DNA from: a virus
Strand: one strand, 5' to 3'
Virus record (IMG/VR): IMGVR_UViG_3300045988_167077
Location: 1 to 61,145 of that record
DNA: 61,145 bases
Positions within the stretch are counted from its first letter, which is position 1. Every line of letters starts with the position of its first letter. Positions 15,914 to 48,232 of this stretch are shown here, piece after piece. The notes beneath the pieces were generated by a model, which searched no databases, was not told the DNA's origin, and saw nothing but the letters and a program-made list of their open reading frames with translations. A program made the translations under genes and the position numbers.

Positions 15914-15917
15914 TGTT

Positions 15918-25847: not shown

Positions 25848-25913
25848 GTTATTTTTGTTCCTAGTTTGTTTCTTTTGGATTCTTTTTGTTATTTTTGTTC
25901 CTAGTTTGTTTCT
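25848..25913. repeat. Two exact 26-bp direct repeats spaced 40 bp apart, immediately upstream of the integrase start
   Basis: gttatttttgttcctagtttgtttct at 25848-25873 and 25888-25913. A degenerate third copy lies at 25581-25605. Confidence 0.85.
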
Positions 25914-25920
25914 CTGGAGT

Positions 25921-27870: not shown

Positions 27871-28377
27871 ATGGCACTTCCAGGAATAGGAATAGGCAGC
27901 GTGATAGGCGCAGGCATGAAAGCGGCGTCCATCATCTATGGCGGCGCAAAGAACGCCAAGGCTTACACGGATGTTATAAACAGCATCAAACAACAGCAGC
28001 AGGACAACCAGGACTGGTTTGACAGGCGTTACAATGAAGACTCCACCCAGAGGGCGGACGCCCAGGCGCTTCTCACGGCGACTGAGGAAAGCATCCGCAA
28101 CAGGAACAGGCAGGCCGCAGGAGCCGCGGCGGTCATGGGCGGGACAGACGAGAGCGTGGCGGCGGCAAAGGCCGCGAACAATCAGGCCCTGGTCGACGCG
28201 ACTAGCAAGATAGCGGCAGCCGCGGACCAGCGGAAGGATGCAATCGAGAACCAGTACATGTCTACCAAATCAAACTTGAGTTCCCAGATCAACGACATGA
28301 CGCTCAAGAAGGCGCAGAGCACGGCTGACGCCGTGAAGGGAGTGGCTGATGCGGCCGGCAGTATAGCTTCACTATAA
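27871..28377 (+). CDS. Putative internal virion / ejection protein (small)
   Basis: 168 aa. Gly-rich hydrophobic N-terminus LPGIGIGSVIGAGMKAASIIYGG followed by an Ala/Gln-rich helical region. It heads the operon leading to the portal. Confidence 0.5.
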   Translation: MALPGIGIGSVIGAGMKAASIIYGGAKNAKAYTDVINSIKQQQQDNQDWFDRRYNEDSTQRADAQALLTATEESIRNRNRQAAGAAAVMGGTDESVAAAKAANNQALVDATSKIAAAADQRKDAIENQYMSTKSNLSSQINDMTLKKAQSTADAVKGVADAAGSIASL

Positions 28378-28388
28378 ATCGTCCCGAC

Positions 28389-29738: not shown

Positions 29739-29745
29739 GTACGGC

Positions 29746-32700
29746 ATGAACGACAATAAGAGAAAATTATACGATGCCCTGTCGAATGACTATGACATGG
29801 GTACATACGAGCAGTTCAGAAAGGACCTCGAGGACAAGGACAAGAGACGGAAATTGTACGATGCGACCAGCGACGCGTATGATTTCGGCGATTATGACCA
29901 ATTTGAGGCGCAGCTGGGCTATGGTCAGTCTCAGTCCGCTCCAAGTGCAGAGGAAATCAATTCAGGCAGTGCAGGTCCTGTCATGCCGAAGCCGGCCATG
30001 GAAAACAGGAACTGGGAGGTACAGATGGGGAACGGCCACAGCCGTGCGACCGTGGAAAAGCCTGAACCTGTAGATGTGCCCGTTCCGCAGAGACCTGAAG
30101 GCCAGGAGCCGTCTGATGATGGGACCGCGGCTTCTTCTGGTGATGTGAGGTCATATCTGGAGAATGCCAACAGACAGCAGGTAGCCAACCTCAGCAGGGA
30201 CATCAGCTCACGACTGGATGAGGCGCAGACGAAATCCCGTGACATATATATGAAGGAACAGGAAGACGCACGCAAAGGTGGATTCCTGTCGACACTTGCA
30301 CATGCCATTGCCGCGTCCGGCCATAATCCTGAAGGCAGGTCCGGAGGCATGTCCGATGCCCAGCAGAGGTCACTTCAGGGCGCGAACAGCGAACTCCAGA
30401 GCGAAATATCCAAACTGGAGGCTGCAAAGAAGGCGATGAGCAATGCCGAAGAGATTATAGCCGAGGCAGACAAGAGTGTCCAGGAAGGCAAATTCCCCGG
30501 CTTTTTCAAAGGCGTAGCACGCGGCTTCGGAGACAAGCTGTTTGACGTCAACACGTGGGACATGGGAGTGTCAGACACGAAGAACAGCATCGAACTGCTT
30601 AAGGCCCTCAGGAAGTACGATGAGGGAAAGCCGCTTTCGGAATCCGAGCAGATGCTTCTGGACGCGAAGTCGGTGGAACTCGCCACGAATGCCTACTTCG
30701 GTTCATACATAGGCAGGGGATACAAGGCGGGAGCCGTGACGGCACAGAGCCTGCCGTTCATGTTGGAGATGGCGGTCAACCCGGCCAGCACCCTTGGCGA
30801 ATCCACACAGAGCATGCTGGCCAGGTATGCGCTGTCGAGGTTTGCGAAGAAAGGAGCGACCAGGGCCGCCCAGAAGTTCGCTACAAAGGCTGCAGGGGCT
30901 GCAGGACGCGCCTTGGGTGACATAGCCGGTTCAGCTGTCATGGCAGGGACATCCGGCGCTGTCCGTGTGGCCGGTGACGCCATCGACAGGCATGTCGGTG
31001 ACATCAAGACTGATATGGACGGGCAGGGACAGACCGTATTTGCAGGTCATGACCCAGAAAGCCTCGGGAAATCGATTGCAAAGGCATTCACGTCAACTGC
31101 AATAGAGAACCATTCCGAGATGCTGGGCGAATACTTCGCTCCGGCTCTCGGCATCGTTTCCAAACTCGGCAGGAAGGGCATGGAGAAGTTCGGCCTGAAG
31201 AATGTCGTGGATTTCGTTGACGATGTCAGTGCGACTGACGCCGCCAAGCTCATAGCGGATTTCCAGAAGCGCACCAAGTGGCACGGAACCATCGGAGAGT
31301 ATGCGGAAGAGGTCGCAGGCAACATTGAGAATGCCATTCTTGTCGGAGACAACACTTTGGACGCGTCGGATGACACCGGAGTGTTCAATCTGGACCAGAA
31401 CATCGACACGTTCCTGGGCGTGGCCCTTATGGGAGGAGTATTCAGTACGGCCCGTACTATCGGGTGGCGTACTCCAAAATACAGGGCTAGGATGGAGATG
31501 GAGGAGGCCCGTAATAAGGCAAGGACGAAATACGGAAGTGAGGCATGGCAGGAGATTGAGGACAGGATGGCGGAAGCCGGGGACTCCGGCATGTCGGCCG
31601 TATTGTCCACTGTGATTGCCGGCGAGAACAGTCCTGAGAAGGCAAAGGCCCTGCTGGACTATGCGAAGAGCATCAAGAAGTATGAGGGTATGCTGGCGGG
31701 AGATGAGAAGCGCAGGGAGATTGCGAGCCCGGAGGCGACGGATCTGGAGACTTCCTATGAGAACGGCTATACGCTTTCGACGCCGCAGGAAGTGCATGAC
31801 GCGAAACTGATGTTCGAGTATCAGGAGGCCATGCTCCAGAAGGCGCTGGGCACTTCCGACATTGATATCGACACAATTATGCTCGGCAATGAGATGGGAA
31901 CGCTTACGGACGAGCAGAAGTCAGTAGCCATGGACTATCTCAATGCCAAGGCCACATTTGACGGCGTCATTGACAGGGTGAGGGATGACATCGACAGCAG
32001 GATTTCTTCCGTGGAGAATGCCATCGACGCGAGCACGAACAGGGATACCGGAATGCTGCAGCCTGCAAGTCTTGTCGACGACAGGCCTGTCCACATCATT
32101 TCGGGAATCGTCAGGCTCACTCCTGACGGGACGATGGTGGACACCAGGAACTCTGAGAACTTCATAATCGTCCGTGACGACAAGACCGGCAGGATGGAGA
32201 CCATTTCTCCTTCAGACATAAACCGTCTTGAGAATGAGATAGACCCGTCCATGGAGAAACAGGCGGCCAGACAGCAGATCCAGGATGTCTATGGCGGCCG
32301 TGAAGCTGACAGCATCGACGGCGTGCTTGCCTTCAATCCTGGCGACACATACACTCTGACCAATGGGCAGGGGCAGTCTTTCCCTGTTCAGATTGTGGCC
32401 AATGAACAGGGCGTGGCTGACAACGGTGACGGAACCGTCAATGTCATCCTCAATAATGACATTGACACCCAGACCGGGCAGCCTCGTATCACTCAGATGC
32501 CTAAAGAGCAGATCCAGGAGATGGCGGAGGCCACCAACCTGTCAAGACTGCAGCAGTACGAACAGCAGAAGCTTGCCAGGGCAGCGGAACAGGCGGAAAC
32601 GGATGCGACAGGGAGGACACCTGAGAATCCTTTCAGAATCAATGACAGGATCACACTGTCTGATGCGGAGACCGGCAAGGTGGAGAACGGAGTGGTCGGT

Positions 32701-35700
32701 TCGGAACTCACGGATGACGGCAAGTATGAGGTCGTCGTGGAGAAGCAGGACGGCAGCCAGTCCATACTCTATCTGTCTCCAAGTGAACTGGAACAGCTTG
32801 GCGCCAGACTGGAACAGCCGGAGGCCGTGGAAGAACGGAATGCTCCGGTTTTGGAACAGAATCAGCCGGTTTTGGAACAGAATCAGCCGGTTTTGGAACA
32901 GAAGACAGAGAAGGCCGAGCAGGAGTCTGCGATGTCACGCATACCTTTAGACAGGGATGGAGTGCCGCAGTTCGAGCAGGCTCAGCCGTCTGACACGTGG
33001 GAGGCCCTTCTTGAACTCAACAGCGGCAATGCCGTAGAGGCGGAGGATACCGCAAGGCAGATGTATGAAAACGCATCGAAGAATCTTGACAAGGCCCAGA
33101 AGACCAAGCCGAAATCCGGCACTTCAGTGATGGAGATCCAGAGGAACAAGGCTGAGCGCAACGGGCAGATAGACGAACTCCGGAAGTCCGTGGATTTCTG
33201 GGGCAAGGTCCTGTCATTCCCTGAGGCTGTGAGGAAGTCGGCAAGTGCAGCCGCAGAGGCAGAGGTTCGACAGAAAGAGGACGCGAAGAGGGAGGCAGTA
33301 CGACAGGCAAAAGAGAACCTGGCCAAAGGGCGCAAACTGATGCAGCAGAAGGGAACGTATTATAAGGATGACGCCAAACTCGGCGATTATCTGGATTTCC
33401 ATGATTATGCGCTGCGTATGATTGCCAATGGACGCGTGAAGTTCGTCTGGAAGAACGATGCCGACAACAACTCGATAAAGGGGCTTGGCGGACATCTCGG
33501 TCTTGAGGACAGCGAATCGGAGAGAAAGGCTCTCTTCAGTCTCCTGGCAAACCAGGATAAGGGCGGATTGCGTCCTGATGACGCCGCGGAACAGTTGTCG
33601 GAGGAATACAATTCAAGTCTGGGCGCCGAGGTAATCAGTTCTTCTGAGGCCCTTGATGTCATTCTTGACATTATTCGCACTTATGGCGGCAAGACCCGCG
33701 ACATGATGAATGCCGCCATTGACGCACATGCAATGGCCGGTATGGACGAGAGGGGCCATGATGAAGACAACAAGTCTTCTGAGGACAAAGATAATTCAAA
33801 GATTGCTGAAGGCCAAGAATCTCTTCCTGCAGATGCTCCATTGAGCAACGAGATTAATGAGTTCGGGGTTCCTTTCATCGAGTCTTCGGATGGAACAACC
33901 GTTTTTGGCGTATTGACTGACGACAGCGGTTTGTCTCCTGCTCCTATCAAATTAAGCCTCGGAGAGAATGCCGCAGATAAAAATGGCACCAATCATGGTT
34001 ATGGCTTGCTTCATATTGAAGCAGGACATGGGGACCAGATACGTGCAGCAGGTTATTCTTCCATCAAAGATTTCGTTGAAGATGTGGCCCGCAATTATGA
34101 CACAATCCGCGAAGGTGGAATTGTTGCAAATAATCAAACGTATCTGCTGGAACTCTCAGATGAGCACAACAACACATTGTTTATCCAGTTGTCACGGGAT
34201 GGCAGCTATTGGAACATAAACAGCGCGGGTATTTTCAAGAAGAAATACTCGCGCCGTAAGCCGGAAGTCTTTACTCGACCCGCATTGAAGACCGAAACTG
34301 ACACCGATTCCGGTAGAGTTGATAGCAGCCGTTTTAGTGGTGCAACTGCGCCAGCAGGAAACTCTCATCAGACTTCTGAAGGCAAAGATACAAATATTTC
34401 CGAAGAAAGCAACACGGGCTCTGAGAAATCTGTGGCAGAGCAGATTACGGAACAGAGAGAGGTCGTGAATACGGAGCCGACTGAGGCGCAGAAGGAAGCC
34501 GGCAACTACCGCATGGGGCACGTCAAGATAGACGGAATGGATGTCACCATCGAGAACCCTAAGGGCAGCATCCGGAGAGGTACTGATGCGGACGGCAAGA
34601 AGTGGGAGTCTGAGATGCACTATGACTATGGTTATATCCGCGGCACAAAGGCTGTGGATAACGACCACATCGACATATTCCTTTCTGACAACCCGGAGAC
34701 TGGGAACGTCTTTGTCGTCGACCAGGTGAACCCGAAGACGGGAGAGTTTGACGAGTCCAAGGTGATGTATGGTTTCGCTTCTGAGCAGGAGGCCAGGGAC
34801 GCTTATCTTTCGAATTACGAAAAGGGCTGGAAGGGTCTCGGCAAGATTACTGAGGTGACCAGGGAAGAGTTCAAGAAATGGATTGAATCATCCACGAGAA
34901 AGACAAAGCCGTTCTCGGAATATGCAAGTGTGAAAGTTGCTGAGGCGCAGAAGGAGAAATCCATTCAAGGACTTGAAGGATACTCGCGTGACGAGATCAA
35001 AGGCATTGTGACAGATCATATCAACGATGTGATGAGGGACTATGATATTGATGCGGAAATAATCGGCATGGATATTCATGGATCCAGGAACCGTCATGAC
35101 GCCAGACCGGACTCTGACTTGGACGTAGTTGTCGAATATAGTGGCGACATCCGGGAGGACGACATGTTCAATGCGCTTAACGGCGAGGAGGATGCGCTTT
35201 CGATTGAGGGAATCAAGGTCGATATCAACCCTATAAGAAAAGAGGAAACTGGTGACCTCCAGGACTACATGAAGCAGTCGGAAGAGTATGACAGGGAAAA
35301 GAGTTCTGCTGACAACCAGGGCAATCCTGTAAATGAGGACAGCACTCCTGCTGGTCGTGCCGTCAAGGAAGAAGAAAAGCCGGCAGAGGTTTCCGCTCCT
35401 GCTGAAACCGAGACCCCAAAAAACGAGGGTGCATTTGGTCTTGTCAGCGATGATAGAATGGCAGAACTGAAAGAGAGACTGCGCAAGAAGTTGAGCGGTC
35501 AACTCAATATGGGCATTGACCCGGAAATTCTTGCTATCGGTATGGAACTCGCAGTAGGGCACATTGACCGAGGTGTCAAGACCTTTGCGGACTTCTCCAA
35601 GAAGATGATTGAGGATTTGGGCGATGTTATCCGTCCATACCTCAAAGCCTTCTACAATGGCGCACGAGACCTGCCCGAAGTAATAGAGAGTGGTCTTTCT

Positions 35701-38700
35701 GCCGAAATGACCCCTTATGATGAGGTGCGCCGCTTCAACGTTGCAACCATTGGCGAGAATGGCGAGGAAAAGAAGCCTACCATTCTAGAGACAGCCGAGC
35801 AGGTAAGCAACGAACTGACCGTGCAGCGCAATGCTGATGAGGTGGAAGTGGTTGTTTCCGAAACGGAAAACACCACTAACGACGTATATTCAATCGCTCC
35901 TGCCCAGTACACAACCAAGCGCGGCAAGGTGCTAGACATGTTCTTGGTGAAGCCTAACGACGAATTGGGCACATCTGAACAGCGCGCAGCCAATGCACGT
36001 GTACGCGAAATGAAAGGATGGTGGGATAAGAAAGCTGGCGGCTTCATGCTTCGCAGCGAGGAAGATGCACGCCAGTTTGTCGAGCAAACGTTCCGTAATC
36101 CTATCGGCACTACTGCATCGGCTAATGAGGTGCAAGCCGCAAAAACTTCTCTCATGAGCGACACAGGTTCTTCACGTGACGAGCAGGAAGTAAATGCCGC
36201 AGTGGGCAAGACTTTCAAGTCTAAGAAAGGCCTTATCCTGTATGTAGACCGCATCGACGATGGCCGAGTATTCTACGAGATTACCGACATTGACGGCACT
36301 ACGGAGAGATACGACACATCTATCCCTGCAATGGCCGACGCTCTCCAGCGTTGGGAAGAAGTAACTGTAACTGATAACAACAATAACAATGAAACAGACA
36401 GAACAGCAGCAGAGCAAGCTGCTGAAAATAAACAGCCGAAGAATTCAACTAAAAAGAAAAAATCGGTATCTTTGCATACAGAAGTGGATGACTTATTTAG
36501 TGGTCTGTTCGATGAAGAAACATTAAACTCTAAAGACAACGAAAATGGATTACAACGAAATGATGCAGTTCGCTCCGAAGGGCTGTCAGCCGACGGTGGT
36601 AAACACACAGAAAGACTATCAGAAGGCTCTGAAAAAGATAGCGGAAGCGAACCACAAGAAAGAAGCGGACTTAACGCCGGAAGAAAAGGAACAGGCGTTG
36701 AGGCAGATAGGTCTGTGCGACCTCGACTTTCAGACACCGTAGAAGAACTCGCTCCGTCAGAGCACAAGAACACTCACAACAACCATTCAGAACGAGGTGA
36801 GAATCACGCTCCTACCTCGATAGATGCACGCATTGAAGCCAATATAAAGGCTATTGAGTTGGCTCAACAACTTATTGACAGCGGTGAACAGGCAACTGAA
36901 AAGCAGATGCAGGTACTCCGCAAGTTCAGCGGTTGGGGTGGCCTCGGCAAGGCTTTCAGCGACAGCCTGTATTCTGTGCAGTTGCAGAATATCTTAGGTG
37001 CAGAAGCCTATCAGGATGCCGTAATGAGTGCCAATAGTGCGTACTACACACCTGCTTATATCGTAGATACCCTTTGGGATATTGCAGAGCAATTGGGATT
37101 CAAGGGTGGAAACATTCTTGAGGGTTCTGCCGGTATCGGCAATATCTTGGGTCAGATGCCTATAAACATCAGCGAGCGAAGCGACATTCACGCAATCGAG
37201 ATTGACGGCACATCTGGCAATATCCTTTCTCTCCTATATCCGGACGCAAAAGTGGATATACAGGGATTTGAGCAGACACGCATACCTAACGGAAGTGTGG
37301 ACTTGGCAATTACCAATGTTCCTTTCGTTACAGGGCTGCGAGTGAATGATACCACCGGAGACAAGGACCTCTCGAAGAAATTCCACAACATCCACGATTT
37401 CTGCATTGCCAAGAACGTGCGCAAACTGCGTGAGGGCGGTTTGGGCATCTTCATTACATCCAACGGAACACTTGACAACAGCAAGCAACTCCGTGATTGG
37501 ATTGTCAGCGAGGGCGGTGCGGACTTCATCGGTGCGTTCCGTATGAATAACAAGACATTCGGAGGAACAGGCGTAACTTCCGACATCATCGTCATACGCA
37601 AGCGTATGAACGGCAGGAAATCATCCAATGCCATTGATGTAAGCACCATTACCGGTGAGCGTTCGGTAGAATACGATACAGGCGACACTCGCAAGGTAAA
37701 AGGGCAGACTGTCCCCGTCATCAAACACCTTGCTATGGATTACAACCGTTATTTCGTTGAACATCCCGAAAATATGGCAGGTGTAATGCAGTTCGCATTT
37801 GAGCAGGGAGACAACTTCCGGCCTACTGCCAAAGGTCTATATCCGGAAAAAGGAAAGAACCAAGAGCGTATGCTTTCTGATTTCGTTTCCTCTTTCAAAG
37901 AAGAGACCGACACTCCTGCTGCATCTGATGAATCCAACAGGACAGATAATGGTTATGTGTCGGATGCTTCCGCTGACGGAAGGAAACTTGGAGAGCTGTA
38001 TGTAAAGGACAGCAAACTTGTTGTTGCCGGTATTGGTGGTTACTCACCTCTTGCCGTTAATGACAACAAGGTCAAGGGACACACGAAAGTGGAGTGCTTC
38101 AAAGCATACGCAGCAATCAAGGATGCTCTTGCAGAAGTCCTCAAATATCAGACCGAGAACGAAAGCGATAGCGGATTGAAGCCTTTGCTTGCCAAACTCA
38201 ACAAGGCTTACGATGATTTTGTCTCCACCTACGGGCATTTCAACAAGAACACCGCCATTTCTTTCCTCCACAATGATGTGGACTATGCAAACGTATTTTC
38301 TCTTGAAAAATACGAGGAAACCGGAGATAAATCCGGCAAGCGTGTTCAGAAGTTCGACAAAGCCGATGTGTTCAGTCAACGTGTAGTCGAAAAAGAGAAA
38401 GAGCCTAATCCGACAAATGTAAAGGACGGCATCATCGCAAGTGTGTTTAAGTTTGGACGCATTGATGTTCCGTACATCGCAAATCAGCTCGGCAGGAGCG
38501 TTGAGGATGTAAAGAAAGAAATCATTTCAAGCGGATACGGATTTGAGGATCCGACAACAAAGCAAATGGAATTGTCCTATCAGTATCTGAGCGGAAATGT
38601 TCGTGAGAAGTTGCGCCAGGCAGAAGCGAATAACGACAACGGAGAGTATGACGGCAATATCAAGGCATTGCAGAAAGTTATCCCTATGGATATTCCCGCA

Positions 38701-41700
38701 CACTTGATTGACTTTACACTCGGTTCATCTTGGATTACTCCGAAGCTCTACGAGGACTATATCAAGGATAGAACCGACATAGATGTAAAACTGACTGCTG
38801 CCGGTGGCTCTTGGTTTATGGATACCCCTTACTACGTCAATAACGAGAAGAACCGCTCAATGGGCGTATATAGCGAGGTTCTCCATAATACCGTGTTAGG
38901 TCATACACTTATCGAAGCAGCCATACAGAACAAGACCATAACTGTATCCCGTACTTCAAAGAAATGGGACGGTACTACTGAGACCATTACCGACAAGGAT
39001 GCGACACAGGCTTGTGCTGCGAAGATTGACGAGATAAGACAGGACTTCAAGGATTGGGCAAGACAGAAGATGCAGAGCGATTCTGAAATGTCCGATGAAA
39101 TGGAGCGAATCTATAACGACACGTTCAACAACTATGTGCCCATGAGTATTCCGGATGAGTTCGTGCCGGAATACTTCGGAGGTGCCTCCCACAAGTTCAA
39201 AATGCGCCCTCATCAAGGCAAAGCCATTGTAAGAGGAACTATGCAACCACTCCTGCTCGCCCACGAGGTGGGAACAGGAAAGACATTCACCCTCATTTCC
39301 ACCGCTATGGAGATGCGCAGACTTGGTACTGCCCGTAAGCCTATGATTGTTGTGCAAAATGCAACAGTCGGTCAGTTCGTGGCAAGTGCAAAGGAACTGT
39401 ATCCTAATGCCAAGATATTGACCCTCGAAGAAGCCGACCGCACAGCGGACGGAAGAAAGAACTTCTATGCCAAAATCAGACATAACGATTGGGATATGAT
39501 TGTCGTACCTCAATCCACGTTCGAGTTTATCCCGGACAGTGAGGAAAGGCAGATGCAATTCGTGCAGGACAAAATCGAGGAAAAGAAAGCTGTCCTCGAA
39601 AATATGCAGGATGCCGACCCACGTGGAGAGAGTATGATTACCAGACAAGCTAAAAAGGAAATCTCCGACTTGGAAGCGCAGCTCGCAGAGTTGAGTGAGT
39701 CCGCATCGAAGAAGCGTAGCGCATCGGCAGAGAAAAAGCGTGCCGTAACTTTGCAAAACGCAGAGGTAAAGGCTCTTGAAATGCTCGACCGCCGTACTGA
39801 TGATGTGGAGAACTTTGACGATATGGGCATTGATGCCCTGCTCATTGATGAAGCGCACGAGTATAAGCACCTTGGATTCGCCACCGCTATGCAGCGTGGT
39901 GTAAAGGGAGTGGATTCATCATATAGCAAGAAGTCGCAGGGAGTATATCTGAAAACACAGGCTGTGTTGGAGAACAACAACGGCAGGAACGTTATTTTTG
40001 CTACCGGTACTCCTATCAGCAACACGGCAGCAGAGATATGGACATTTATGCGCTACCTTATGCCGGCTGATACGATGAAAGAGTACGGTATCTATTACTT
40101 TGATGATTTCGTGCGCAACTTCGGCAATATTCAGCAGATGCTGGAGTTCAACACAAACGGAAAATTCAAAGAGAGCAACCGCTTTGCCGGATATGTCAAT
40201 CTTCCAGAGTTGGTGCGTATATGGTCCGGTATATCGGATACTGTCCTTACAAAAGAAGCCGGAGATGTAAAGGACAAGATACCCGACATTGAGGGAGGAA
40301 AGGCACAAGACCTTTATCTTCCGCAGACAAAAGCCTTACGCAGTATTATGAAGTTTGTCAAAAGCGAACTTCAGCGATACGAGCAGATGAGTGGTAGGGA
40401 GAAGAAAGAGAACAGCCATATTCCTTTGACGATGTATGGAATAGCCAAATCTGCAGCCGTCGATGCCCGACTTGTCTCCGATGCGGAGGATGACCCTAAC
40501 AGCAAGACCAATGAAGCTGTGCGCCAAACCCTGCGTTCTCTGAAAGAGACCGCTTCATACAAGGGTACGGTCGCTATCTTCTCCGATAACTATCAGAATA
40601 AGAAGACCGGTTTCAACTTGTATGATGACATCAGGAACAAGTTGATTGCACAGGGCGTTCCTGATGATGAGGTTGTAGTTATCCGTCCGGGGATGACCAT
40701 GAAGAAAAAACTTGAAATTTTCGATAAGGTAAACCGTGGAGAAATCCGTGTCATTCTAGGCTCTACCTATACCCTTGGTACAGGAGTTAATATCCAAGAG
40801 AGACTGCACACCCTTATTCACCTCGATGCGCCTAACCGTCCTATGGACTATACACAGCGCAACGGACGTATCTTGAGACAGGGCAACCTGCACAAGGCAA
40901 TGGGCAAGCCTGTGCGCATCCTGCGCTTCGGTGTAGAGGATAGTCTTGATGTGACCGCCTATCAGCGTCTGAAAACAAAGGGCGCTATTGCTGACAGCAT
41001 TATGAACGGCAAGCAGATGATGGCCAACAATATGACCAACCGTGTGCTTGAAGAGGAAGAAGATGTATTTGGAGATACCATTGCGCAACTCTCCGGTAGC
41101 GAGTATGCAATGCTGAAGAATAATGCGGAGAAGAATGTACGCAAGTTCGAGAGCCGTAAGAAGCAATGGGAAGCCGACCAGACTTACATTCATAACGCCA
41201 AGCCGAAATTAAAGGCGCAGATAGCCGAGGCGGAGAAGCGTGCGGAGACAAACCGCAAGTTCCGGAAGGCGGTTGAGCAGGCGTTCCCCGGTGGGAAGTT
41301 CGACAGCATCACCGCAGGAAAGCAAACATTCTCAACGGCTGAGGAAATGGCTGACTTCTTTAAGGAGCATAACAAGGTCATTCTCGACAAGATGAAGCAG
41401 ATGAAAGAGGGTGGCGATGATAGCCATACCCGTGAACTTACGGTGAGAATCGGAGACTACTCTTTCAAGGTTCGCACCGTCTTGAAAAAGGACATCGGCA
41501 GAAACGGAGGCCAGTTGTTCTCCGAGGTTCGTCGCCAAATGACCTATTCTTGTCCGGAACTTGGCTTGGAGGATGTTCCTGTATATCAGAACCTGCTTCG
41601 CAATGCCATTGACGATATAGTTCAGAATGTAATTACAGGAAAGAACTATGCGGAGCGTGTGGAAAAGGCTGAAGCCGATGTCAAGCACTACCAATCTGAA

Positions 41701-44700
41701 CTGAAGCAGGTGGAATCCCGCGAGGGCGTTCCTTTCGAATATGCTGCGGAATTAGAGCAGGCTCGCAATCAGTATGAAGAGTATTCTGAACTGATGAAAA
41801 AGGAAATGGAAGAAAAAGAAGCCAAGTATGCTGAAATGGATAAAGATGTAGAAGCTGCTTCCGACATTTCCACTTCCGAAGAAGATGATGATGACGATTT
41901 AATGAGAGCCAGCGATACTATGTACCGCATCCGTGAAAGTGCTGCTCCCACTATAGGCGTAGGGCTTGATGTCGAAGCTGCAGCGGAAAGGCTTGCGGAA
42001 AGCCTCGGTGAGAGGGTGCGTATTGTCCGCGATGTCAATGAAATTGAGAACCAGAATAAAAATGTCCAGGAGAGCCAGAGGAAATCGAAGGGTTGGTTCA
42101 ATACCAGAACCGGAGAAATCGTCGTCGTCCTTCCGAATGCAACCGGCATTGAAGATGTCCAGGCTACAATCCTGCACGAGGCTGTGGGCCACAAGGGCTT
42201 GCGTGAACTCGTGGGAGATGACAGGTTCGATGACTTCCTGGATAAAGTGTATGCGGCTGCTACGAAGGCTACCAGATTGGAAATCGTCAGTCTCGCAAGA
42301 CGCAACCATTGGGATTTCAGGCTTGCGACTGAAGAGTATATTGCGGGCTTGGCTGAGAAAGGTTTCTCCGGGCGCGAGAACAGGACATTGTTCGGGAAGA
42401 TCAAGGATTTCTTCCTCGATATGTTGAGCAGGGCAAAGATTGCGCTGGGCTTCAATATCGGGGACAACGAACTGCGCTATATGCTGTGGCGGACATATCA
42501 GATGCGGACTTCAAGAGGTATTCTTGCGAAGGCCAATGACATGGCCGTCCAGCAGGAGCTGAAGGTCGGAAACTTCAGGGAGGATAATTCAAGTCCTGTA
42601 TCCTTCCTTAAACAGATGCAGGACAATGCGGAAACGCTGGTGCCTCGTCAGTTGACCAAAGAAATCTGGGACAATGAAATAAAAGGAAAGGTCTTCAGCA
42701 CTCCAATAGGTGTTGTAAAATTGGGCGAGAACCAATATGAAAAGAATATCAAGAAGGGTCGCGAACTTGAATTCGGCATGTTGATTCCTACCATTGAACG
42801 TCCTGATGCAATATTCGAAGAGGATGCTCCGGAGGCTGGCGCAGAAAGACAAACAAAGTATGTCTTTGTGAAATCTTTCGTTGAAAACGGAGTCAAGAAG
42901 ATAAACTACGCATCGGTTTCAGTAAGGAAGGACGGGATGGAGGTCGTTGCCAGCAGCCACTATCTTCGTGACAAACAGATGCTGAATAAAATAGAAAAAG
43001 AGCGAATGCTTTGGAACCGTTTCGCAAGCGGTTCTGAACTTTCGGCACAAGGCGGCTCGACAGCTCAAAGCAATGCTCTTTCTCTTGACGCAAATTTACT
43101 AAAAGGAGTCAAGAAAACAAATTCCGACGAGGAAATATTGTCAGGTGATGATTCAAGACTCCGTTTCAGGACCTCCGGTAATGGCGGAAGCAGCAACACT
43201 GCTCGGGACATTTACGAGGAGAAGACCCGCGTGATAGACAGAAACGGACGGAAGTCAGACACGGCCAACCTTATGCGCCGTCTGAAGGAAGCCTATGTGG
43301 ATAGCATGCAGTCTCTGAAATACCTCCAAGACGCTATTTCGGAAGAAACCGGGAAGCCTGTGGAAGACTTCGAGAACGCATACCTGGCGGAGAACTCAAT
43401 GAGTTCAAAGAACAAGGCCCAGACTGACATTTATCTGAACAGGTTCTTCAATCCTATAAAGGACGCTATCCGTGACCTCCAGAAAGAGGGAGCGGAATAT
43501 GGAGACATTGTCCGCTACCTCATGGCGAAACACGGACTCGAGCGAAACGAGGTCTTCTCAAAGAGGGATGCCGAGAAAGATGGAGGCGTCTGGGACGGTT
43601 CAGTCAGACGGGACTACTCAGGTCTGACCGAACTCACCAGAAGGGATACTGATACCGTCGCGCCTAGAATAGACGAGATCACCTCGCGAGCTGAGGATAT
43701 CGTCCGGAAGTTCGAAATGGACCATGATACGGATGTCCTGTGGGAAAAGATAAATGCCGCCACGAAGGACACCCTCCGGACGTCATATATAACGGGAATG
43801 CTCACGAAGGACAACTATGAGATGGTCCGTTCCATGTTCAGATACTATATCCCGTTGCGGGGATGGAGCGAGAATACGGCTTCGGCGGTGTACGACTATC
43901 TGAGCGATGCGAGACCGAAGACGTCATCCATAGTGAAGGCGGCTACCGGAAGAACCACCATTTCTGATGATCCGATTGCGACCATTGCCTATATGGGACA
44001 GAGTGCCATTATCCAGGGCAACAGGAATCTCATGAAGCAGAAGCTGCTTAATCTGGCTCTCAACCACAAGACTGGCCTCCTCACCGTAAGCAGGCAGTGG
44101 GAAGTGCTGGACCCTGTGACGGGAATGTGGACTCCAAGGGACCCGGATATTCCGGCCGACGCTGCCCCAGAACAGGTGGCTGACATCGTCGCCGACTTTG
44201 AGAAGGACATGAAGGAGGCGGAAAAGAAAGGCGTCGCAAGGCTCTCGAGGGGAAAACTCGATACCGGCAAGCATCTCACTGCCTATGAGGGACAGGAGCA
44301 TATCATAAAGGTCAAGCGTGGCGGGATTGATTACAGTATCTATCTGAACGGCAACCCGCGTGCAGCCCAGGCTGTCAACGGCATGACCAATCCTGATGCT
44401 GTGGACAGCTGGCTGATCCGCAAGGCCAGGGTCATAAAGAATTTTATGGCCAGGATGTTCACGTCCCAGAATCCGGCGTTCATAATATCGAACCTGAGCC
44501 GAGACGTCATTTTCGCAGGAACTGCCGTATATGCCAAAGAGGATGCGAAATATGCCGCAAGGTATGCGAAGAACATTACTGTGGCTCTGGCCAAGGGACA
44601 GCTGATAGGCCTGATCCACAGGTTCGAGACGGACAGGCTTGACAACTCGAAAGACCTGGACAGATATTTCGGAGAGTTCATACGCAATGGAGGAGAGACA

Positions 44701-46107
44701 GGTTTCACGCAACTCAATACCGTCGATGACTTCAAGCGCGACATTGACCGGTTCTCCAGGGAGATGAAGCAGGGACAGGTGATGAAAGTCTCAACTAAAG
44801 TCTGGAACGGCATCTGGGACGGCATCGAATACATGAACAGGTGCGCTGAGGATGCGACAAGGTTTTCAGTGTATATGACATCCCGCCAGATGGGGCGTAG
44901 CGTGGAAAGGAGCATCAGTGACGCAAAGGAGATTACGGTCAACTTCAACAGGAAAGGAAGCGGAGGATTCGGAGCCAGGTTGATGAACTTTGCATATATC
45001 TTCTTCAATGCTGCAGTCCAGTCGCTTGCCAATGCCGGAAAGATAATGTACGAACACCCTATGAAGGCGCTTGCCGCCCTTGGGGCATTCTCGGCTGCCG
45101 GCTTTATGGCTCCGCTTCTGGCGCAGGCGATCATATCCGCATTTGGAGGAGATGACGACGCCTATTGGGATTTGCCGGAGTGGGTACGCAGGAACAATTT
45201 TGTCTTCTATATCCCATGGAGTGAAAACAAGTTCCTTATCATTCCGATTTCCCAGGAGCTCCGTCCTTTCTATGCCATGGGCGAGATTGCGATGTCAGTG
45301 CTGATGGGCAAGGAGGAAGTCCTTGACGGATTGAAGAGCGCTGCCGGAAGTTTTATGGACCTTCTCCCTATAGACTTCATGGGGAATGGCGGAAACCTTG
45401 CGATTAGCCTTACACCTACGGTTGCACAGCCTTTCGCGCAATTGGTCGCCAATACCGATTATTTCGGAAGCCCGATTTACAGACGCAACGACTACAACAA
45501 ATTGGACCCGGCATGGACGAAGGCCTACAAGGGTACCAGTCCGATGCTGGTCAATGCGTCCAAGTGGCTGAATGAAGTGACGGGAGGAGATGATGTCAAG
45601 AGGGGATGGATAGATCCTATAAATAATCCTGCAGTCATCGAACATCTGTTTGAAAGTTATTTGGGTGGAACAGGCAAGACCATTAACAGGGCCGCAAAGA
45701 CATTCTCGATGATATGGAATCCGGACATGCGTGACATCAGGAACGTCCCGATTGCAAGCACCTTCATTCAGGAATCCGATGATGAAAGGGTCGCCGGCAA
45801 TCAGTTGAACCGGGAATACTTCAAGCTCATGGACGAGTTCAAAGAGACTAGCCACACCGTCTCCGGATACAAGAAGAAGGCGAGGATGGGCTCAATGGAA
45901 TATGCGGACAAGTTGAATGAGTTCATGGAGACCCCTGATTTTGAGAGGTACTCAAAGGCCAGAGGCTATGCCAATACGATTTCCAAATTGAGGCAGGCTT
46001 TGAAGAGAGCCCAGGAGAGCGGGGAAGATGTGATGGTCGAAGAAAACCTCCAGCAGATCCTCCATGACCTCAAGCGGCAAATGGTCGAAGAACTCAAGGA
46101 ACAGTGA
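29746..46107 (+). CDS. Giant polyvalent protein (5,453 aa): PPase-like, nucleotidyltransferase, N6-adenine MTase, SNF2 helicase, HExxH metallopeptidase, two nuclease-like modules and a C-terminal TM region
   Basis: Single stop-free 16,362-nt frame with ATG start. Multiple catalytic motif sets were read directly; see the domain sub-features. Confidence 0.9.
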   Translation: MNDNKRKLYDALSNDYDMGTYEQFRKDLEDKDKRRKLYDATSDAYDFGDYDQFEAQLGYGQSQSAPSAEEINSGSAGPVMPKPAMENRNWEVQMGNGHSRATVEKPEPVDVPVPQRPEGQEPSDDGTAASSGDVRSYLENANRQQVANLSRDISSRLDEAQTKSRDIYMKEQEDARKGGFLSTLAHAIAASGHNPEGRSGGMSDAQQRSLQGANSELQSEISKLEAAKKAMSNAEEIIAEADKSVQEGKFPGFFKGVARGFGDKLFDVNTWDMGVSDTKNSIELLKALRKYDEGKPLSESEQMLLDAKSVELATNAYFGSYIGRGYKAGAVTAQSLPFMLEMAVNPASTLGESTQSMLARYALSRFAKKGATRAAQKFATKAAGAAGRALGDIAGSAVMAGTSGAVRVAGDAIDRHVGDIKTDMDGQGQTVFAGHDPESLGKSIAKAFTSTAIENHSEMLGEYFAPALGIVSKLGRKGMEKFGLKNVVDFVDDVSATDAAKLIADFQKRTKWHGTIGEYAEEVAGNIENAILVGDNTLDASDDTGVFNLDQNIDTFLGVALMGGVFSTARTIGWRTPKYRARMEMEEARNKARTKYGSEAWQEIEDRMAEAGDSGMSAVLSTVIAGENSPEKAKALLDYAKSIKKYEGMLAGDEKRREIASPEATDLETSYENGYTLSTPQEVHDAKLMFEYQEAMLQKALGTSDIDIDTIMLGNEMGTLTDEQKSVAMDYLNAKATFDGVIDRVRDDIDSRISSVENAIDASTNRDTGMLQPASLVDDRPVHIISGIVRLTPDGTMVDTRNSENFIIVRDDKTGRMETISPSDINRLENEIDPSMEKQAARQQIQDVYGGREADSIDGVLAFNPGDTYTLTNGQGQSFPVQIVANEQGVADNGDGTVNVILNNDIDTQTGQPRITQMPKEQIQEMAEATNLSRLQQYEQQKLARAAEQAETDATGRTPENPFRINDRITLSDAETGKVENGVVGSELTDDGKYEVVVEKQDGSQSILYLSPSELEQLGARLEQPEAVEERNAPVLEQNQPVLEQNQPVLEQKTEKAEQESAMSRIPLDRDGVPQFEQAQPSDTWEALLELNSGNAVEAEDTARQMYENASKNLDKAQKTKPKSGTSVMEIQRNKAERNGQIDELRKSVDFWGKVLSFPEAVRKSASAAAEAEVRQKEDAKREAVRQAKENLAKGRKLMQQKGTYYKDDAKLGDYLDFHDYALRMIANGRVKFVWKNDADNNSIKGLGGHLGLEDSESERKALFSLLANQDKGGLRPDDAAEQLSEEYNSSLGAEVISSSEALDVILDIIRTYGGKTRDMMNAAIDAHAMAGMDERGHDEDNKSSEDKDNSKIAEGQESLPADAPLSNEINEFGVPFIESSDGTTVFGVLTDDSGLSPAPIKLSLGENAADKNGTNHGYGLLHIEAGHGDQIRAAGYSSIKDFVEDVARNYDTIREGGIVANNQTYLLELSDEHNNTLFIQLSRDGSYWNINSAGIFKKKYSRRKPEVFTRPALKTETDTDSGRVDSSRFSGATAPAGNSHQTSEGKDTNISEESNTGSEKSVAEQITEQREVVNTEPTEAQKEAGNYRMGHVKIDGMDVTIENPKGSIRRGTDADGKKWESEMHYDYGYIRGTKAVDNDHIDIFLSDNPETGNVFVVDQVNPKTGEFDESKVMYGFASEQEARDAYLSNYEKGWKGLGKITEVTREEFKKWIESSTRKTKPFSEYASVKVAEAQKEKSIQGLEGYSRDEIKGIVTDHINDVMRDYDIDAEIIGMDIHGSRNRHDARPDSDLDVVVEYSGDIREDDMFNALNGEEDALSIEGIKVDINPIRKEETGDLQDYMKQSEEYDREKSSADNQGNPVNEDSTPAGRAVKEEEKPAEVSAPAETETPKNEGAFGLVSDDRMAELKERLRKKLSGQLNMGIDPEILAIGMELAVGHIDRGVKTFADFSKKMIEDLGDVIRPYLKAFYNGARDLPEVIESGLSAEMTPYDEVRRFNVATIGENGEEKKPTILETAEQVSNELTVQRNADEVEVVVSETENTTNDVYSIAPAQYTTKRGKVLDMFLVKPNDELGTSEQRAANARVREMKGWWDKKAGGFMLRSEEDARQFVEQTFRNPIGTTASANEVQAAKTSLMSDTGSSRDEQEVNAAVGKTFKSKKGLILYVDRIDDGRVFYEITDIDGTTERYDTSIPAMADALQRWEEVTVTDNNNNNETDRTAAEQAAENKQPKNSTKKKKSVSLHTEVDDLFSGLFDEETLNSKDNENGLQRNDAVRSEGLSADGGKHTERLSEGSEKDSGSEPQERSGLNAGRKGTGVEADRSVRPRLSDTVEELAPSEHKNTHNNHSERGENHAPTSIDARIEANIKAIELAQQLIDSGEQATEKQMQVLRKFSGWGGLGKAFSDSLYSVQLQNILGAEAYQDAVMSANSAYYTPAYIVDTLWDIAEQLGFKGGNILEGSAGIGNILGQMPINISERSDIHAIEIDGTSGNILSLLYPDAKVDIQGFEQTRIPNGSVDLAITNVPFVTGLRVNDTTGDKDLSKKFHNIHDFCIAKNVRKLREGGLGIFITSNGTLDNSKQLRDWIVSEGGADFIGAFRMNNKTFGGTGVTSDIIVIRKRMNGRKSSNAIDVSTITGERSVEYDTGDTRKVKGQTVPVIKHLAMDYNRYFVEHPENMAGVMQFAFEQGDNFRPTAKGLYPEKGKNQERMLSDFVSSFKEETDTPAASDESNRTDNGYVSDASADGRKLGELYVKDSKLVVAGIGGYSPLAVNDNKVKGHTKVECFKAYAAIKDALAEVLKYQTENESDSGLKPLLAKLNKAYDDFVSTYGHFNKNTAISFLHNDVDYANVFSLEKYEETGDKSGKRVQKFDKADVFSQRVVEKEKEPNPTNVKDGIIASVFKFGRIDVPYIANQLGRSVEDVKKEIISSGYGFEDPTTKQMELSYQYLSGNVREKLRQAEANNDNGEYDGNIKALQKVIPMDIPAHLIDFTLGSSWITPKLYEDYIKDRTDIDVKLTAAGGSWFMDTPYYVNNEKNRSMGVYSEVLHNTVLGHTLIEAAIQNKTITVSRTSKKWDGTTETITDKDATQACAAKIDEIRQDFKDWARQKMQSDSEMSDEMERIYNDTFNNYVPMSIPDEFVPEYFGGASHKFKMRPHQGKAIVRGTMQPLLLAHEVGTGKTFTLISTAMEMRRLGTARKPMIVVQNATVGQFVASAKELYPNAKILTLEEADRTADGRKNFYAKIRHNDWDMIVVPQSTFEFIPDSEERQMQFVQDKIEEKKAVLENMQDADPRGESMITRQAKKEISDLEAQLAELSESASKKRSASAEKKRAVTLQNAEVKALEMLDRRTDDVENFDDMGIDALLIDEAHEYKHLGFATAMQRGVKGVDSSYSKKSQGVYLKTQAVLENNNGRNVIFATGTPISNTAAEIWTFMRYLMPADTMKEYGIYYFDDFVRNFGNIQQMLEFNTNGKFKESNRFAGYVNLPELVRIWSGISDTVLTKEAGDVKDKIPDIEGGKAQDLYLPQTKALRSIMKFVKSELQRYEQMSGREKKENSHIPLTMYGIAKSAAVDARLVSDAEDDPNSKTNEAVRQTLRSLKETASYKGTVAIFSDNYQNKKTGFNLYDDIRNKLIAQGVPDDEVVVIRPGMTMKKKLEIFDKVNRGEIRVILGSTYTLGTGVNIQERLHTLIHLDAPNRPMDYTQRNGRILRQGNLHKAMGKPVRILRFGVEDSLDVTAYQRLKTKGAIADSIMNGKQMMANNMTNRVLEEEEDVFGDTIAQLSGSEYAMLKNNAEKNVRKFESRKKQWEADQTYIHNAKPKLKAQIAEAEKRAETNRKFRKAVEQAFPGGKFDSITAGKQTFSTAEEMADFFKEHNKVILDKMKQMKEGGDDSHTRELTVRIGDYSFKVRTVLKKDIGRNGGQLFSEVRRQMTYSCPELGLEDVPVYQNLLRNAIDDIVQNVITGKNYAERVEKAEADVKHYQSELKQVESREGVPFEYAAELEQARNQYEEYSELMKKEMEEKEAKYAEMDKDVEAASDISTSEEDDDDDLMRASDTMYRIRESAAPTIGVGLDVEAAAERLAESLGERVRIVRDVNEIENQNKNVQESQRKSKGWFNTRTGEIVVVLPNATGIEDVQATILHEAVGHKGLRELVGDDRFDDFLDKVYAAATKATRLEIVSLARRNHWDFRLATEEYIAGLAEKGFSGRENRTLFGKIKDFFLDMLSRAKIALGFNIGDNELRYMLWRTYQMRTSRGILAKANDMAVQQELKVGNFREDNSSPVSFLKQMQDNAETLVPRQLTKEIWDNEIKGKVFSTPIGVVKLGENQYEKNIKKGRELEFGMLIPTIERPDAIFEEDAPEAGAERQTKYVFVKSFVENGVKKINYASVSVRKDGMEVVASSHYLRDKQMLNKIEKERMLWNRFASGSELSAQGGSTAQSNALSLDANLLKGVKKTNSDEEILSGDDSRLRFRTSGNGGSSNTARDIYEEKTRVIDRNGRKSDTANLMRRLKEAYVDSMQSLKYLQDAISEETGKPVEDFENAYLAENSMSSKNKAQTDIYLNRFFNPIKDAIRDLQKEGAEYGDIVRYLMAKHGLERNEVFSKRDAEKDGGVWDGSVRRDYSGLTELTRRDTDTVAPRIDEITSRAEDIVRKFEMDHDTDVLWEKINAATKDTLRTSYITGMLTKDNYEMVRSMFRYYIPLRGWSENTASAVYDYLSDARPKTSSIVKAATGRTTISDDPIATIAYMGQSAIIQGNRNLMKQKLLNLALNHKTGLLTVSRQWEVLDPVTGMWTPRDPDIPADAAPEQVADIVADFEKDMKEAEKKGVARLSRGKLDTGKHLTAYEGQEHIIKVKRGGIDYSIYLNGNPRAAQAVNGMTNPDAVDSWLIRKARVIKNFMARMFTSQNPAFIISNLSRDVIFAGTAVYAKEDAKYAARYAKNITVALAKGQLIGLIHRFETDRLDNSKDLDRYFGEFIRNGGETGFTQLNTVDDFKRDIDRFSREMKQGQVMKVSTKVWNGIWDGIEYMNRCAEDATRFSVYMTSRQMGRSVERSISDAKEITVNFNRKGSGGFGARLMNFAYIFFNAAVQSLANAGKIMYEHPMKALAALGAFSAAGFMAPLLAQAIISAFGGDDDAYWDLPEWVRRNNFVFYIPWSENKFLIIPISQELRPFYAMGEIAMSVLMGKEEVLDGLKSAAGSFMDLLPIDFMGNGGNLAISLTPTVAQPFAQLVANTDYFGSPIYRRNDYNKLDPAWTKAYKGTSPMLVNASKWLNEVTGGDDVKRGWIDPINNPAVIEHLFESYLGGTGKTINRAAKTFSMIWNPDMRDIRNVPIASTFIQESDDERVAGNQLNREYFKLMDEFKETSHTVSGYKKKARMGSMEYADKLNEFMETPDFERYSKARGYANTISKLRQALKRAQESGEDVMVEENLQQILHDLKRQMVEELKEQ
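32845..32903 (+). repeat. In-frame 21-bp tandem repeat (2.8 copies) inside the giant ORF
   Basis: ccggttttggaacagaatcag x2 plus a 17-nt partial copy, encoding PVLEQNQ PVLEQNQ PVLEQK. Confidence 0.9.
33850..34260 (+). other. Giant-ORF domain: nuclease/toxin-like module 1 (PBECR-like, tentative)
   Basis: PIKLSLGEN...NHGYGLLHIEAGHGDQI...LFIQLSRDGSYWNINSAG. It is related to the module at 42690-43030. Confidence 0.4.
34483..34890 (+). other. Giant-ORF domain: family I inorganic pyrophosphatase-like
   Basis: VTIENPKGS..., YDYGYIRGT..DNDHIDIFL..., GEFDESKVMYGF and YEKGWKGLGKI parallel the E. coli Ppa blocks IEIPA, NYGYI..DGDPVDVLV, EDAKLVAV and EKGKWVKVEGW. Confidence 0.7.
34960..35250 (+). other. 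Giant-ORF domain: minimal (pol-beta fold) nucleotidyltransferase
   Basis: IHGSRNRHDARPDSDLDVVVEY is a GS...DxD nucleotidyltransferase signature. Confidence 0.7.
36820..37620 (+). other. Giant-ORF domain: N6-adenine DNA methyltransferase
   Basis: SAM motif ILEGSAGIGNILG (37111-37140) and catalytic VDLAITNVPF (37309-37326), an NPPF-type variant. Confidence 0.8.
39200..40960 (+). other. Giant-ORF domain: SNF2/DEAD-like superfamily 2 helicase
   Basis: Motif I HEVGTGKT, motif II LLIDEAHEYK, motif III FATGTPISN, motif V GTGVNIQ and motif VI QRNGRILRQGN. Confidence 0.85.
42050..42450 (+). other. Giant-ORF domain: zincin-like metallopeptidase
   Basis: TILHEAVGHKGLRE is an HExxH motif (42175-42192). 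Confidence 0.6.
42690..43030 (+). other. Giant-ORF domain: nuclease/toxin-like module 2 (paralog of 33850-34260)
   Basis: PIGVVKLGENQYEKN...YVFVKSF...INYASVSVRKDGMEVVASSHY has the same order of blocks as module 1. Confidence 0.4.
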
Positions 46108-48191: not shown

Positions 48192-48232
48192 GCAATAGGC
48201 CGCATTAGCCAGAAACTAATGCGGCCTATTGC
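48192..48232. terminator. Bidirectional intrinsic terminator between portal and the convergent gene
   Basis: Perfect 17-bp stem gcaataggccgcattag / ctaatgcggcctattgc with loop ccagaaa, followed by tatttt. Confidence 0.75.

Follow-up and report, generated by a model that had tools for sequence, protein, structure and literature searches.

A 5,453-residue open reading frame with the domain content of a phage-type polyvalent protein joins a constrained C-terminal chassis to exchangeable DarB-like cargo

The polyvalent proteins of the class described by Iyer et al. (2017, J Bacteriol; PMC5512222) include ones in which an adenine methylase and a SWI2/SNF2 ATPase are coupled with the LPD36 domain, and HEXXXH variants of the metallopeptidase (MPTase) hub have been described among them; InPase, PBECR2 and LPD38 have been reported only in the phage-type members (PMC5512222). 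DarB of phage P1 (YP_006479.1, 2,255 aa), which is essentially a methyltransferase–SNF2 dyad alone and comes from a myovirus, is non-essential, packaged into the capsid and protective against type I restriction (PMC5512222; PMC9144972), and its packaging requires Hdf, DarA, DdrA and Ulx (PMC9144972). Here we describe a giant open reading frame (ORF) at positions 29746 to 46107 of the IMG/VR virus record IMGVR_UViG_3300045988_167077, the whole of which (positions 1 to 61,145; 61,145 nucleotides) was analysed and is called the window below. The encoded protein resembles the class of Iyer et al. in its adenine methylase–SNF2 module and its phage portal–terminase setting, and it has a candidate for the HEXXXH hub variant; LPD36 was undetected in it.

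The closest relative from an isolated phage is gp55 of BKO1-TP3 (XPO94969.1, 5,553 aa; PQ571269), which is labelled 'DarB-like antirestriction' and is left undiscussed in the paper describing that phage. As in the window, a single giant ORF fills ~26% of a temperate Bacteroides phage genome of ~65 kb, and the gene order is the same (integrase, two small ORFs, giant ORF and P22-like portal). The core of the two proteins, comprising the methyltransferase, the SNF2 ATPase and a module with an HExxxH motif, is 70% identical, and gp55 also has the N-terminal tandem motif, the InPase and the conserved C-terminal region that we call the chassis. In contrast, identity falls to 27% over the N-terminal ~1,200 aa and to 35% over the chassis, and gp55 is without the region at aa 1190–1560, the nucleotidyltransferase and the PBECR2 insert of the window protein.

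Giant proteins of other phages share parts of this layout. In the Bcep22-like Burkholderia phage JC1, gp69 (4,515 aa) shares the methyltransferase–helicase core (26% identity over ~1,900 aa) and, at its C-terminus, the chassis (24% identity, E 3e-43). It was detected by mass spectrometry in purified virions with 51 unique peptides, as was the 510-aa protein encoded just upstream of it, and the 196-aa protein before that one is annotated as virion-associated (PMC9144972). The Bcep22-like giants (JC1 gp69 and Bcep22 gp75) resemble the window in that they fill 22% of the genome in temperate podophages of ~61 kb, with two smaller virion proteins encoded ahead of them; unlike the window, they carry other N-terminal cargo, those of DC1 and CSP3 being annotated as soluble lytic transglycosylases, and their genes lie at the far end of the morphogenesis module rather than beside the portal gene. 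P1 darB, by comparison, also adjoins a portal gene, prt (L007, 10469–19021), but is divergently transcribed. Two further, much smaller proteins, both from Escherichia coli podophages, lack the DarB-like dyad: phi24B gp47 (2,811 aa; LPD5, LPD1, LPD38 and MuF-C), which is abundant in virions but invisible in the map from cryo-electron microscopy and for which a role in ejection has been proposed (bioRxiv 10.64898/2026.04.10.717836), and PTXU04_00025 (2,198 aa, annotated with LPD38 only), which is required for efficient infection (bioRxiv 10.1101/2023.09.18.558157).

The giant ORF of the window runs from an ATG to a stop codon with no internal stop over 5,453 codons (16,362 nt). Because nucleotides 1–99 of the window are identical to nucleotides 61047–61145, the record represents an assembly closed into a circle of 61,046 bp rather than a linear genome of 61,145 bp; the ORF occupies 26.8% of it. 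An independent metagenomic scaffold that is ~97% identical (L002) served as the reference for the ratio of non-synonymous to synonymous substitution rates (dN/dS) and for the comparison of cassettes. The parts shared with it are 95.9–99.1% identical in DNA, the changes are mostly synonymous, and dN/dS is 0.23 in the N-terminal part, 0.17 in the HExxxH/PBECR2 part and 0.042 in the C-terminal part. Over most of the giant protein, homology to L002 or BKO1-TP3 is found in the same frame. These results confirm the original prediction of a single stop-free frame filling about 27% of the genome, and show that the ORF is real, continuous and under purifying selection, with a length beyond chance.

The modules of the giant protein lie as follows (aa positions are those of the protein).

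29746..46107, + strand: giant ORF, ATG-to-stop frame, 5,453 aa, 608 kDa, isoelectric point 5.1, predicted polyvalent virion protein
29761..29904, + strand: tandem motif RKLYDAxSxxYDxGxYxQF, aa 6–24 and 35–53 (regular-expression match)
31096..31458, + strand: LPD14, aa 451–571 (Pfam PF18827, E 3e-24)
33823..34335, + strand: conserved domain of ~170 aa without a Pfam family, aa ~1360–1530 (668 cluster representatives, E ≤ 1e-3)
34483..34887, + strand: polyvalent-type inorganic pyrophosphatase InPase, aa 1580–1714 (Pfam PF18823, E 3.3e-59)
35056..35262, + strand: probable Pol-beta/MNT-type nucleotidyltransferase (GSRNRHDARPDSDLD), aa 1771–1839 (GS-x11-DxD motif)
35302..41967, + strand: exchangeable cargo cassette with the methyltransferase–SNF2 dyad, aa ~1853–4074 (replaced in L002)
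36793..37845, + strand: gamma-class N6-adenine DNA methyltransferase, aa ~2350–2700 (motif I ILEGSAGIG, motif IV TNVPF)
39196..41145, + strand: SNF2-family ATPase/translocase, aa ~3151–3800 (GTGKT at 3176, DEAH at 3368, QRNGR at 3704)
41953..42615, + strand: HExxxH module, aa ~4070–4290, with HEAVGH at 4142–4147 and a conserved ATEEY helix downstream (alignment of relatives)
42685..43014, + strand: PBECR2 (Barnase-EndoU-ColicinE5/D-RelE-like) predicted nuclease, aa 4314–4423 (Pfam PF18810)
43243..46104, + strand: conserved C-terminal chassis, aa ~4500–5453, ~950 aa (AlphaFold2 model, tblastn, dN/dS)
45067..45123, + strand: strongly hydrophobic 19-residue helix in the chassis, aa 5108–5126
45154..45750, + strand: LPD38 in the chassis, aa 5137–5335 (Pfam PF18857, above cut-off)

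Relatives of the C-terminus first appeared as proteins of 1,000–1,650 aa following a separate gene of 3,800–4,800 aa, as would be expected if the continuous frame were an assembly artefact, through a chimeric join or a hidden frameshift, and the true locus held two or more genes. When the C-terminal 953 aa served as the query of a homologue search, every match was a protein of 1,000–1,650 aa, one of them 100% identical, and on their contigs each is preceded by a separate gene for 3,761–4,807 aa. These matches look like fragments because the search bars any match longer than ~1.75 times the query (the longest had 1,666 aa with the query of 953 aa and 663 aa with one of 380 aa). A two-gene locus in the relatives was rejected: the breaks in L002 and in a second scaffold (L003) are 10-N scaffold gaps, and that in a third contig (L005) is one in-frame TAG. 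To survey the family, a sensitive search with aa 1190–1530 was used, which gave 668 cluster representatives, and sizes and modules were counted in the best 150 of these. Sixty-six of the best 150 are at least 3,000 aa long, 22 exceed 5,000 aa and the largest has 6,565 aa. Given these lengths, the single 5,553-aa ORF of the cultured phage BKO1-TP3, the same-frame homology and the purifying selection, the chance that the continuous frame is artefactual is, in our judgement, negligible. The size and layout, which had been called unusual, prove to be typical, with gp55 of BKO1-TP3 taking up 25.7% of its genome in the same synteny and relatives reaching 6,565 aa.

Judged by its domain content, the giant protein falls among the phage-type polyvalent proteins as defined by Iyer et al. 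(2017). Four families of the class score above their Pfam cut-offs, namely PF18827 (LPD14), PF18823 (InPase), PF18810 (PBECR2) and PF18857 (LPD38), and one polypeptide holds the unrelated InPase, methyltransferase, SNF2 ATPase and PBECR2 domains, together with a probable nucleotidyltransferase. A portal gene, a terminase-like ORF and a capsid gene nearby provide a packaging and morphogenesis context, and the ORF matches PHROG 10089, 'DarB-like antirestriction', with E = 0. Membership of this class, with P1 DarB as a relative, had been proposed from the start and is borne out by the four families and by the DarB homology. The protein is thus a further example of an already well-described class, whose members are carried within the particles of many phages, and not a new kind of protein, and it does not overturn current understanding; it adds a well-annotated case from a Bacteroides phage to a widespread class on which few experiments have been done.

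The methyltransferase–SNF2 dyad was compared with P1 DarB by direct BLASTP of aa 2202–4040, the dyad region only, against YP_006479.1. The methyltransferase matched with 30% identity (E 2e-22), with LEGSAGIG aligned to LEPSAGTG, and the two proteins have in common the unusual motif IV NVPF (TNVPF versus GNVPF). In the helicase, ordered high-scoring segments covered the motif II region (E 5e-16) and motif VI with QRNGR (E 1e-6). On these alignments the dyad is a true and collinear homologue of P1 DarB. Pfam gave no match to the window's own methyltransferase sequence, but more distant homologues carry PF07669 (Eco57I) and PF02384 (N6_Mtase), and a profile of the homologues matched CamA (3e-12), M.TaqI (1e-10), BseCI and type I HsdM subunits in the PDB. 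The SNF2 ATPase matched SNF2-rel_dom (1.1e-8) and Helicase_C (1.1e-10) in Pfam; NCBIfam returned only helicase matches far below threshold for the giant protein, such as the DISARM protein DrmD. Both the N6-adenine methyltransferase (ILEGSAGIG/TNVPF) and the complete SNF2-type helicase (GTGKT, DEAH and QRNGR) that had been read from the sequence were thereby recovered.

The dyad lies in a cassette that is exchanged between near-identical phages. In L002, a 4.1-kb segment (4825–8958) with MuF_C, LPD23 and a weak SprT-like HExxH module stands in place of the 6.7-kb cassette of the window, while the flanks are 95.9–99.1% identical. Conversely, the cassette is 70% identical in amino acids and 78.6% in nucleotides to that of BKO1-TP3, whose flanks are just 27–35% identical in amino acids. 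The DarB-like dyad is therefore swappable cargo, and it is also minority cargo: among the 66 large relatives it occurs in 3, whereas the C-terminal chassis occurs in 41, the HExxxH module in 45, the InPase in 34 and the nucleotidyltransferase in 4. Within the giant ORF, the G+C content drops from 0.56 at the 5' end to 0.47 in the methyltransferase–helicase cassette.

The chassis is the most conserved and constrained part of the giant protein (dN/dS of 0.042, compared with 0.17–0.23 elsewhere). The AlphaFold2 model of aa 4501–5453, built from an alignment of 77 sequences, is mostly helical with a predicted local distance difference test (pLDDT) score of 85 and a predicted template modelling (TM) score of 0.81. 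This model had no match among PDB folds (best E 0.3, TM score < 0.1), whereas in BFVD it matched terminal segments of many giant phage proteins with TM scores of 0.6–0.85, including those of Ralstonia phage Alix and Escherichia phage PTXU04 and proteins annotated as LT_GEWL or RelA/SpoT. The matching LPD-domain protein of PTXU04 (terminal segment, TM score 0.62, E 7e-24) is presumably the same as PTXU04_00025. By tblastn the chassis was found in 336 phage records, of which nearly all those with listed genomes have ~57–66 kb; they include Stx-converting (E 1e-28 to 4e-35), Bcep22-like, Ralstonia, Vibrio and Bacteroides phages. The LPD38 model of Pfam (~190 aa) covers about a fifth of the ~950-aa chassis. 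Near LPD38 lies one strongly hydrophobic helix (aa 5108–5126), in agreement with the hydrophobic C-terminal region noted earlier. A homologue of T7 gp16 or of the P22 ejection proteins was considered for the chassis and rejected, with no fold match in the PDB and no PDB sequence match to ejection proteins.

According to the original prediction the giant protein may be a counter-defence effector, and in its strictest form this would make it a purely accessory anti-restriction protein, packaged and injected only against host defences and dispensable on hosts without them. The dyad is homologous to P1 DarB, which is itself non-essential, packaged and protective against type I restriction (PMC5512222; PMC9144972), and most of the recognisable modules are enzymes of a conflict type. 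However, the dyad is the least conserved part, being present in so few of the large relatives and replaced in a phage that is ~97% identical, while the chassis is strongly constrained and widespread among phages. P1 DarB, moreover, was matched only in the dyad (the sole region compared), and an LPD38-only homologue, PTXU04_00025, is required for efficient infection. We therefore regard a purely accessory role as unlikely: the DarB-like dyad stands, but a pure effector role is probably too narrow for a family whose invariant part is the chassis.

The genes around the giant ORF are listed below.

25819..27231: tyrosine integrase (family matches)
27871..28377, + strand: 168-aa ORF with a Gly/Ala-rich hydrophobic N-terminus, candidate small internal or ejection protein (56% identical to BKO1-TP3 gp57, same position)
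28389..29738, + strand: 449-aa ORF, charged and Ala/Lys-rich, candidate internal protein (42% identity over 120 aa to BKO1-TP3 gp56)
46193..48178, + strand: P22-like portal gene (PF16510, E 2.6e-38; phrog_156, E 2e-85)
48192..48232, + strand: terminator-like hairpin with a 17-bp stem (pattern scan; consensus match only)
48664..50787, − strand: terminase-like ORF
52662..54086: SU10-type capsid protein gene

The giant ORF lies directly upstream of the portal gene, as predicted, with gaps of 11 nt between the 168-aa and 449-aa ORFs, 7 nt between the 449-aa ORF and the giant ORF, and 85 nt between the giant ORF and the portal gene. The order of small ORF, mid-sized ORF, giant ORF and portal gene is kept in BKO1-TP3 and in the metagenomic relatives L002, L003 and L005. 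The hairpin at 48192..48232 would close a putative transcription unit spanning 27871–48178. A scan for sigma-70 promoters, which does not cover Bacteroides promoters, gave counts at the level of shuffled sequence.

We consider it probable that the giant ORF encodes a phage-type polyvalent protein that is made late, encapsidated and ejected with the DNA, and that combines an invariant chassis with interchangeable cargo. Packaging is plausible because homologues that share the methyltransferase–helicase core, the chassis or both have been found in virions (JC1 gp69 and phi24B gp47), and a need for the protein during infection may likewise be expected by analogy with the published work on its homologues. 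In support of this reading, the InPase is also found on the portal protein of phage Pa193, as an extension inside the capsid, and the chassis greatly outnumbers the dyad among the large relatives. The protein would be synthesised late, alongside the portal protein and the two small proteins encoded upstream, be incorporated into the capsid interior via the chassis and perhaps also the N-terminal motif, and leave the particle along with the DNA at infection. The chassis, with LPD38, would serve encapsidation and ejection and possibly form part of a conduit through the envelope. The cargo would then act in the first minutes of infection: the methyltransferase and SNF2 translocase would methylate incoming DNA or protect it against restriction (of type I, on the precedent of P1), the InPase and the adjacent nucleotidyltransferase may act on nucleotides or pyrophosphate, PBECR2 is predicted to act as a ribonuclease, and the HExxxH module may release working pieces by cleaving the 608-kDa chain. 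For this phage, we infer packaging and ejection, as well as the proteolytic processing and all of the enzymatic targets.

The phage is temperate, as its integrase at 25819–27231 indicates, and with that gene just upstream of the block, the giant protein could instead be a cytoplasmic multi-enzyme protein that is synthesised during infection but never packaged and serves, for example, as a replication or modification factory or as a superinfection-exclusion factor expressed from the prophage. The giant gene nevertheless belongs to the morphogenesis block, where the portal gene follows 85 nt away on the same strand, and proteomics has placed homologues in virions, which makes a purely cytoplasmic role quite improbable.

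Several points weigh against encapsidation and ejection through the chassis. The chassis is without a solved structural relative, and no ejection protein of the T7 gp14/15/16 type was among its PDB fold matches; with no recognised structural relative, its role in ejection rests on association and not on a recognised mechanism. The single strongly hydrophobic segment lends weak support to a membrane conduit, and a chain of 608 kDa would have to be threaded through the tail channel of a podovirus. Furthermore, the assignment of the HExxxH module as a peptidase failed every database test (Pfam, PDB profile and Foldseek), and the match that links the 168-aa ORF to T7 gp14 lies below threshold and gained no backing from a PDB profile search.

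A bolder extension of the encapsidation and ejection reading, which we put forward only tentatively, is that the ~950-aa C-terminal module is a structurally new, general-purpose encapsidation and ejection chassis that acts as the delivery vehicle of a large group of ~60-kb podophages (Bacteroides, Stx-converting, Bcep22-like, Ralstonia and Vibrio phages), with multi-kilobase effector cassettes swapped N-terminally by recombination, even where genomes are ~97% identical. If this were true, the giants would be to phages what polymorphic toxin systems are elsewhere, and they would offer a tractable system for studying the storage of a protein larger than 0.5 MDa in a capsid and its expulsion. What stays invariant in the family is in any case the large, strongly constrained C-terminal module without a solved structural relative, and not the 'DarB-like' enzymes behind the database name. 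The exchange of multi-kilobase cargo between near-identical gut phages bears on host range, on how restriction is evaded in the gut microbiome and on the design of Bacteroides phage therapy.

Eight modules had originally been read in the giant protein, of which two fail as described (an HExxH zincin and a second nuclease) and one, the nucleotidyltransferase, is only probable; the others were recovered. The supposed zincin reads HEAVGH, which is HExxxH, and showed no zincin fold and no profile match to any solved peptidase; the sole HExxH string in the giant protein overlaps the DEAH box of the helicase. HExxxH is kept in 67 of 72 instances of the module in relatives, and none of the remaining five has HExxH. 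The AlphaFold2 model of the module (pLDDT 80) shows a helix, three strands and a helix. It had no match in Pfam searches of tiles, in a PDB profile search (hmmsearch, E ≤ 10) or in Foldseek against the PDB (best E 0.88). Given the HEXXXH hub variants described in the class, it is a reasonable but unproven candidate for a variant metallopeptidase.

The giant-gene homologue on L005 (ENA ERZ13632044 NODE_41, a 179-kb contig that is probably a prophage) is broken by its single in-frame TAG at ~9842–9844. The codon falls inside a conserved motif of the HExxxH module (LHEVVAHHGLRELFG*KFDNFLD), and the protein downstream of it is the same one on 13 contigs. The TAG could be a nonsense mutation in a prophage, or it could be read through or recoded.

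A variable slot separates the HExxxH module from the chassis. It holds PBECR2 in the window (29.9 bits against a cut-off of 27.1, E 7e-7, profile positions 14–119 of 120) and nothing in BKO1-TP3, while fragments from other relatives have MuF_C, PBECR3 or PF18798 alongside the HExxxH module. PBECR2 was the only one of the two related nuclease-like modules first claimed that could be detected. A self-BLAST of the giant protein gave the self-match only, and no internal repeat emerged at E ≤ 0.05 when tiles of it were compared by self-masked BLAST. For the best candidate partner, aa 1360–1530, a profile–profile comparison with hhalign put the probability of a relation to PBECR2 at 0.04%, and a Smith–Waterman alignment of aa 1370–1512 with aa 4296–4430 gave z = 4.1, a score reached in 1 of 300 shuffles. 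A second nuclease module related to PBECR2 was rejected on the repeat scans and the hhalign result. The domain at aa ~1360–1530 has homologues mostly within proteins of 2,000–6,565 aa, and 3 of 10 short members had sub-threshold matches to PBECR3, so that it is possibly a distant PBECR3-like domain.

At the N-terminus, the duplicated RKLYDAxSxxYDxGxYxQF motif was found where it had been described. The doublet is unique in the six-frame translation of the window, matches phrog_24532 at aa 5–57 (E 3.6e-11) and has a similar counterpart in BKO1-TP3 gp55. Further along, a low-complexity linker carries the tandem peptide PVLEQNQ three times (aa 1033–1052; window 32842–32901).

The family I pyrophosphatase-like domain is the InPase, whose model PF18823 was matched over its full length (199 bits, profile positions 1–135 of 135). 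In the PDB, its sequence matched the C-terminal, capsid-internal extension of the portal gp19 of Pseudomonas phage Pa193 (9b41_L 634–763, E 1e-28). That extension was not resolved by cryo-electron microscopy (PMC11042391), and an InPase is also found at the C-terminus of the BcepF1 portal (PMC5512222). Next to it, the GS...DxD motif of the nucleotidyltransferase is present as described, but its Pfam scores lie just under the cut-offs (Polbeta 20.9 bits, cut-off 26.9; NTP_transf_2 20.3 bits, cut-off 21) and no PDB sequence match was found for the region, so that aa 1771–1839 are a probable Pol-beta nucleotidyltransferase. Such a domain beside the InPase of a phage-type polyvalent protein recurs in a few relatives, for example P0260.

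The two ORFs upstream of the giant gene had been described as putative internal proteins, and they are candidates for this role on the basis of position, conservation in BKO1-TP3 and one uncorroborated sub-threshold match. The latter is a full-length match of the 168-aa ORF to the Pfam family T7_gp14 (PF24072, E 8.6e-4, 19.7 bits, cut-off 27); a profile of two sequences brought up no relevant entry in the PDB, and a T7 gp14 identity is tentative at best. The 449-aa ORF had no family match in PHROG or Pfam. General scans gave no significant family matches for either ORF, no search aimed at the partners Hdf, DarA, DdrA and Ulx having been made, and BLAST of the two ORFs against JC1 gp67 and gp68 detected no similarity.

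Elsewhere, no tRNA genes were found in the window. A 671-aa protein (18029–20044, − strand) has an N-terminal PD-(D/E)XK nuclease fused to an FtsK/HerA-type ATPase, and its gene directly adjoins a RecT recombinase gene (20048–20980, − strand), which is an uncommon architecture for a recombination module. A protein with a PAPS-reductase domain (PF01507, E 3.7e-15) is encoded at 10937–11770 (− strand), and JC1 also encodes a PAPS reductase, just upstream of its block of small and giant proteins. The G+C content of the genome swings between 0.39–0.45 (~10000–16000 and 22000–28000) and 0.55–0.56 (18000–22000 and 28000–32000), which suggests a mosaic origin. Beside the terminase-like gene, a 178-aa ORF (50781–51317, − strand) contains a rhomboid intramembrane-protease domain (PF01694, E 3.8e-7); the rhomboid gene is also present in L002 and in the annotation of BKO1-TP3 and is unusual for a phage morphogenesis region.

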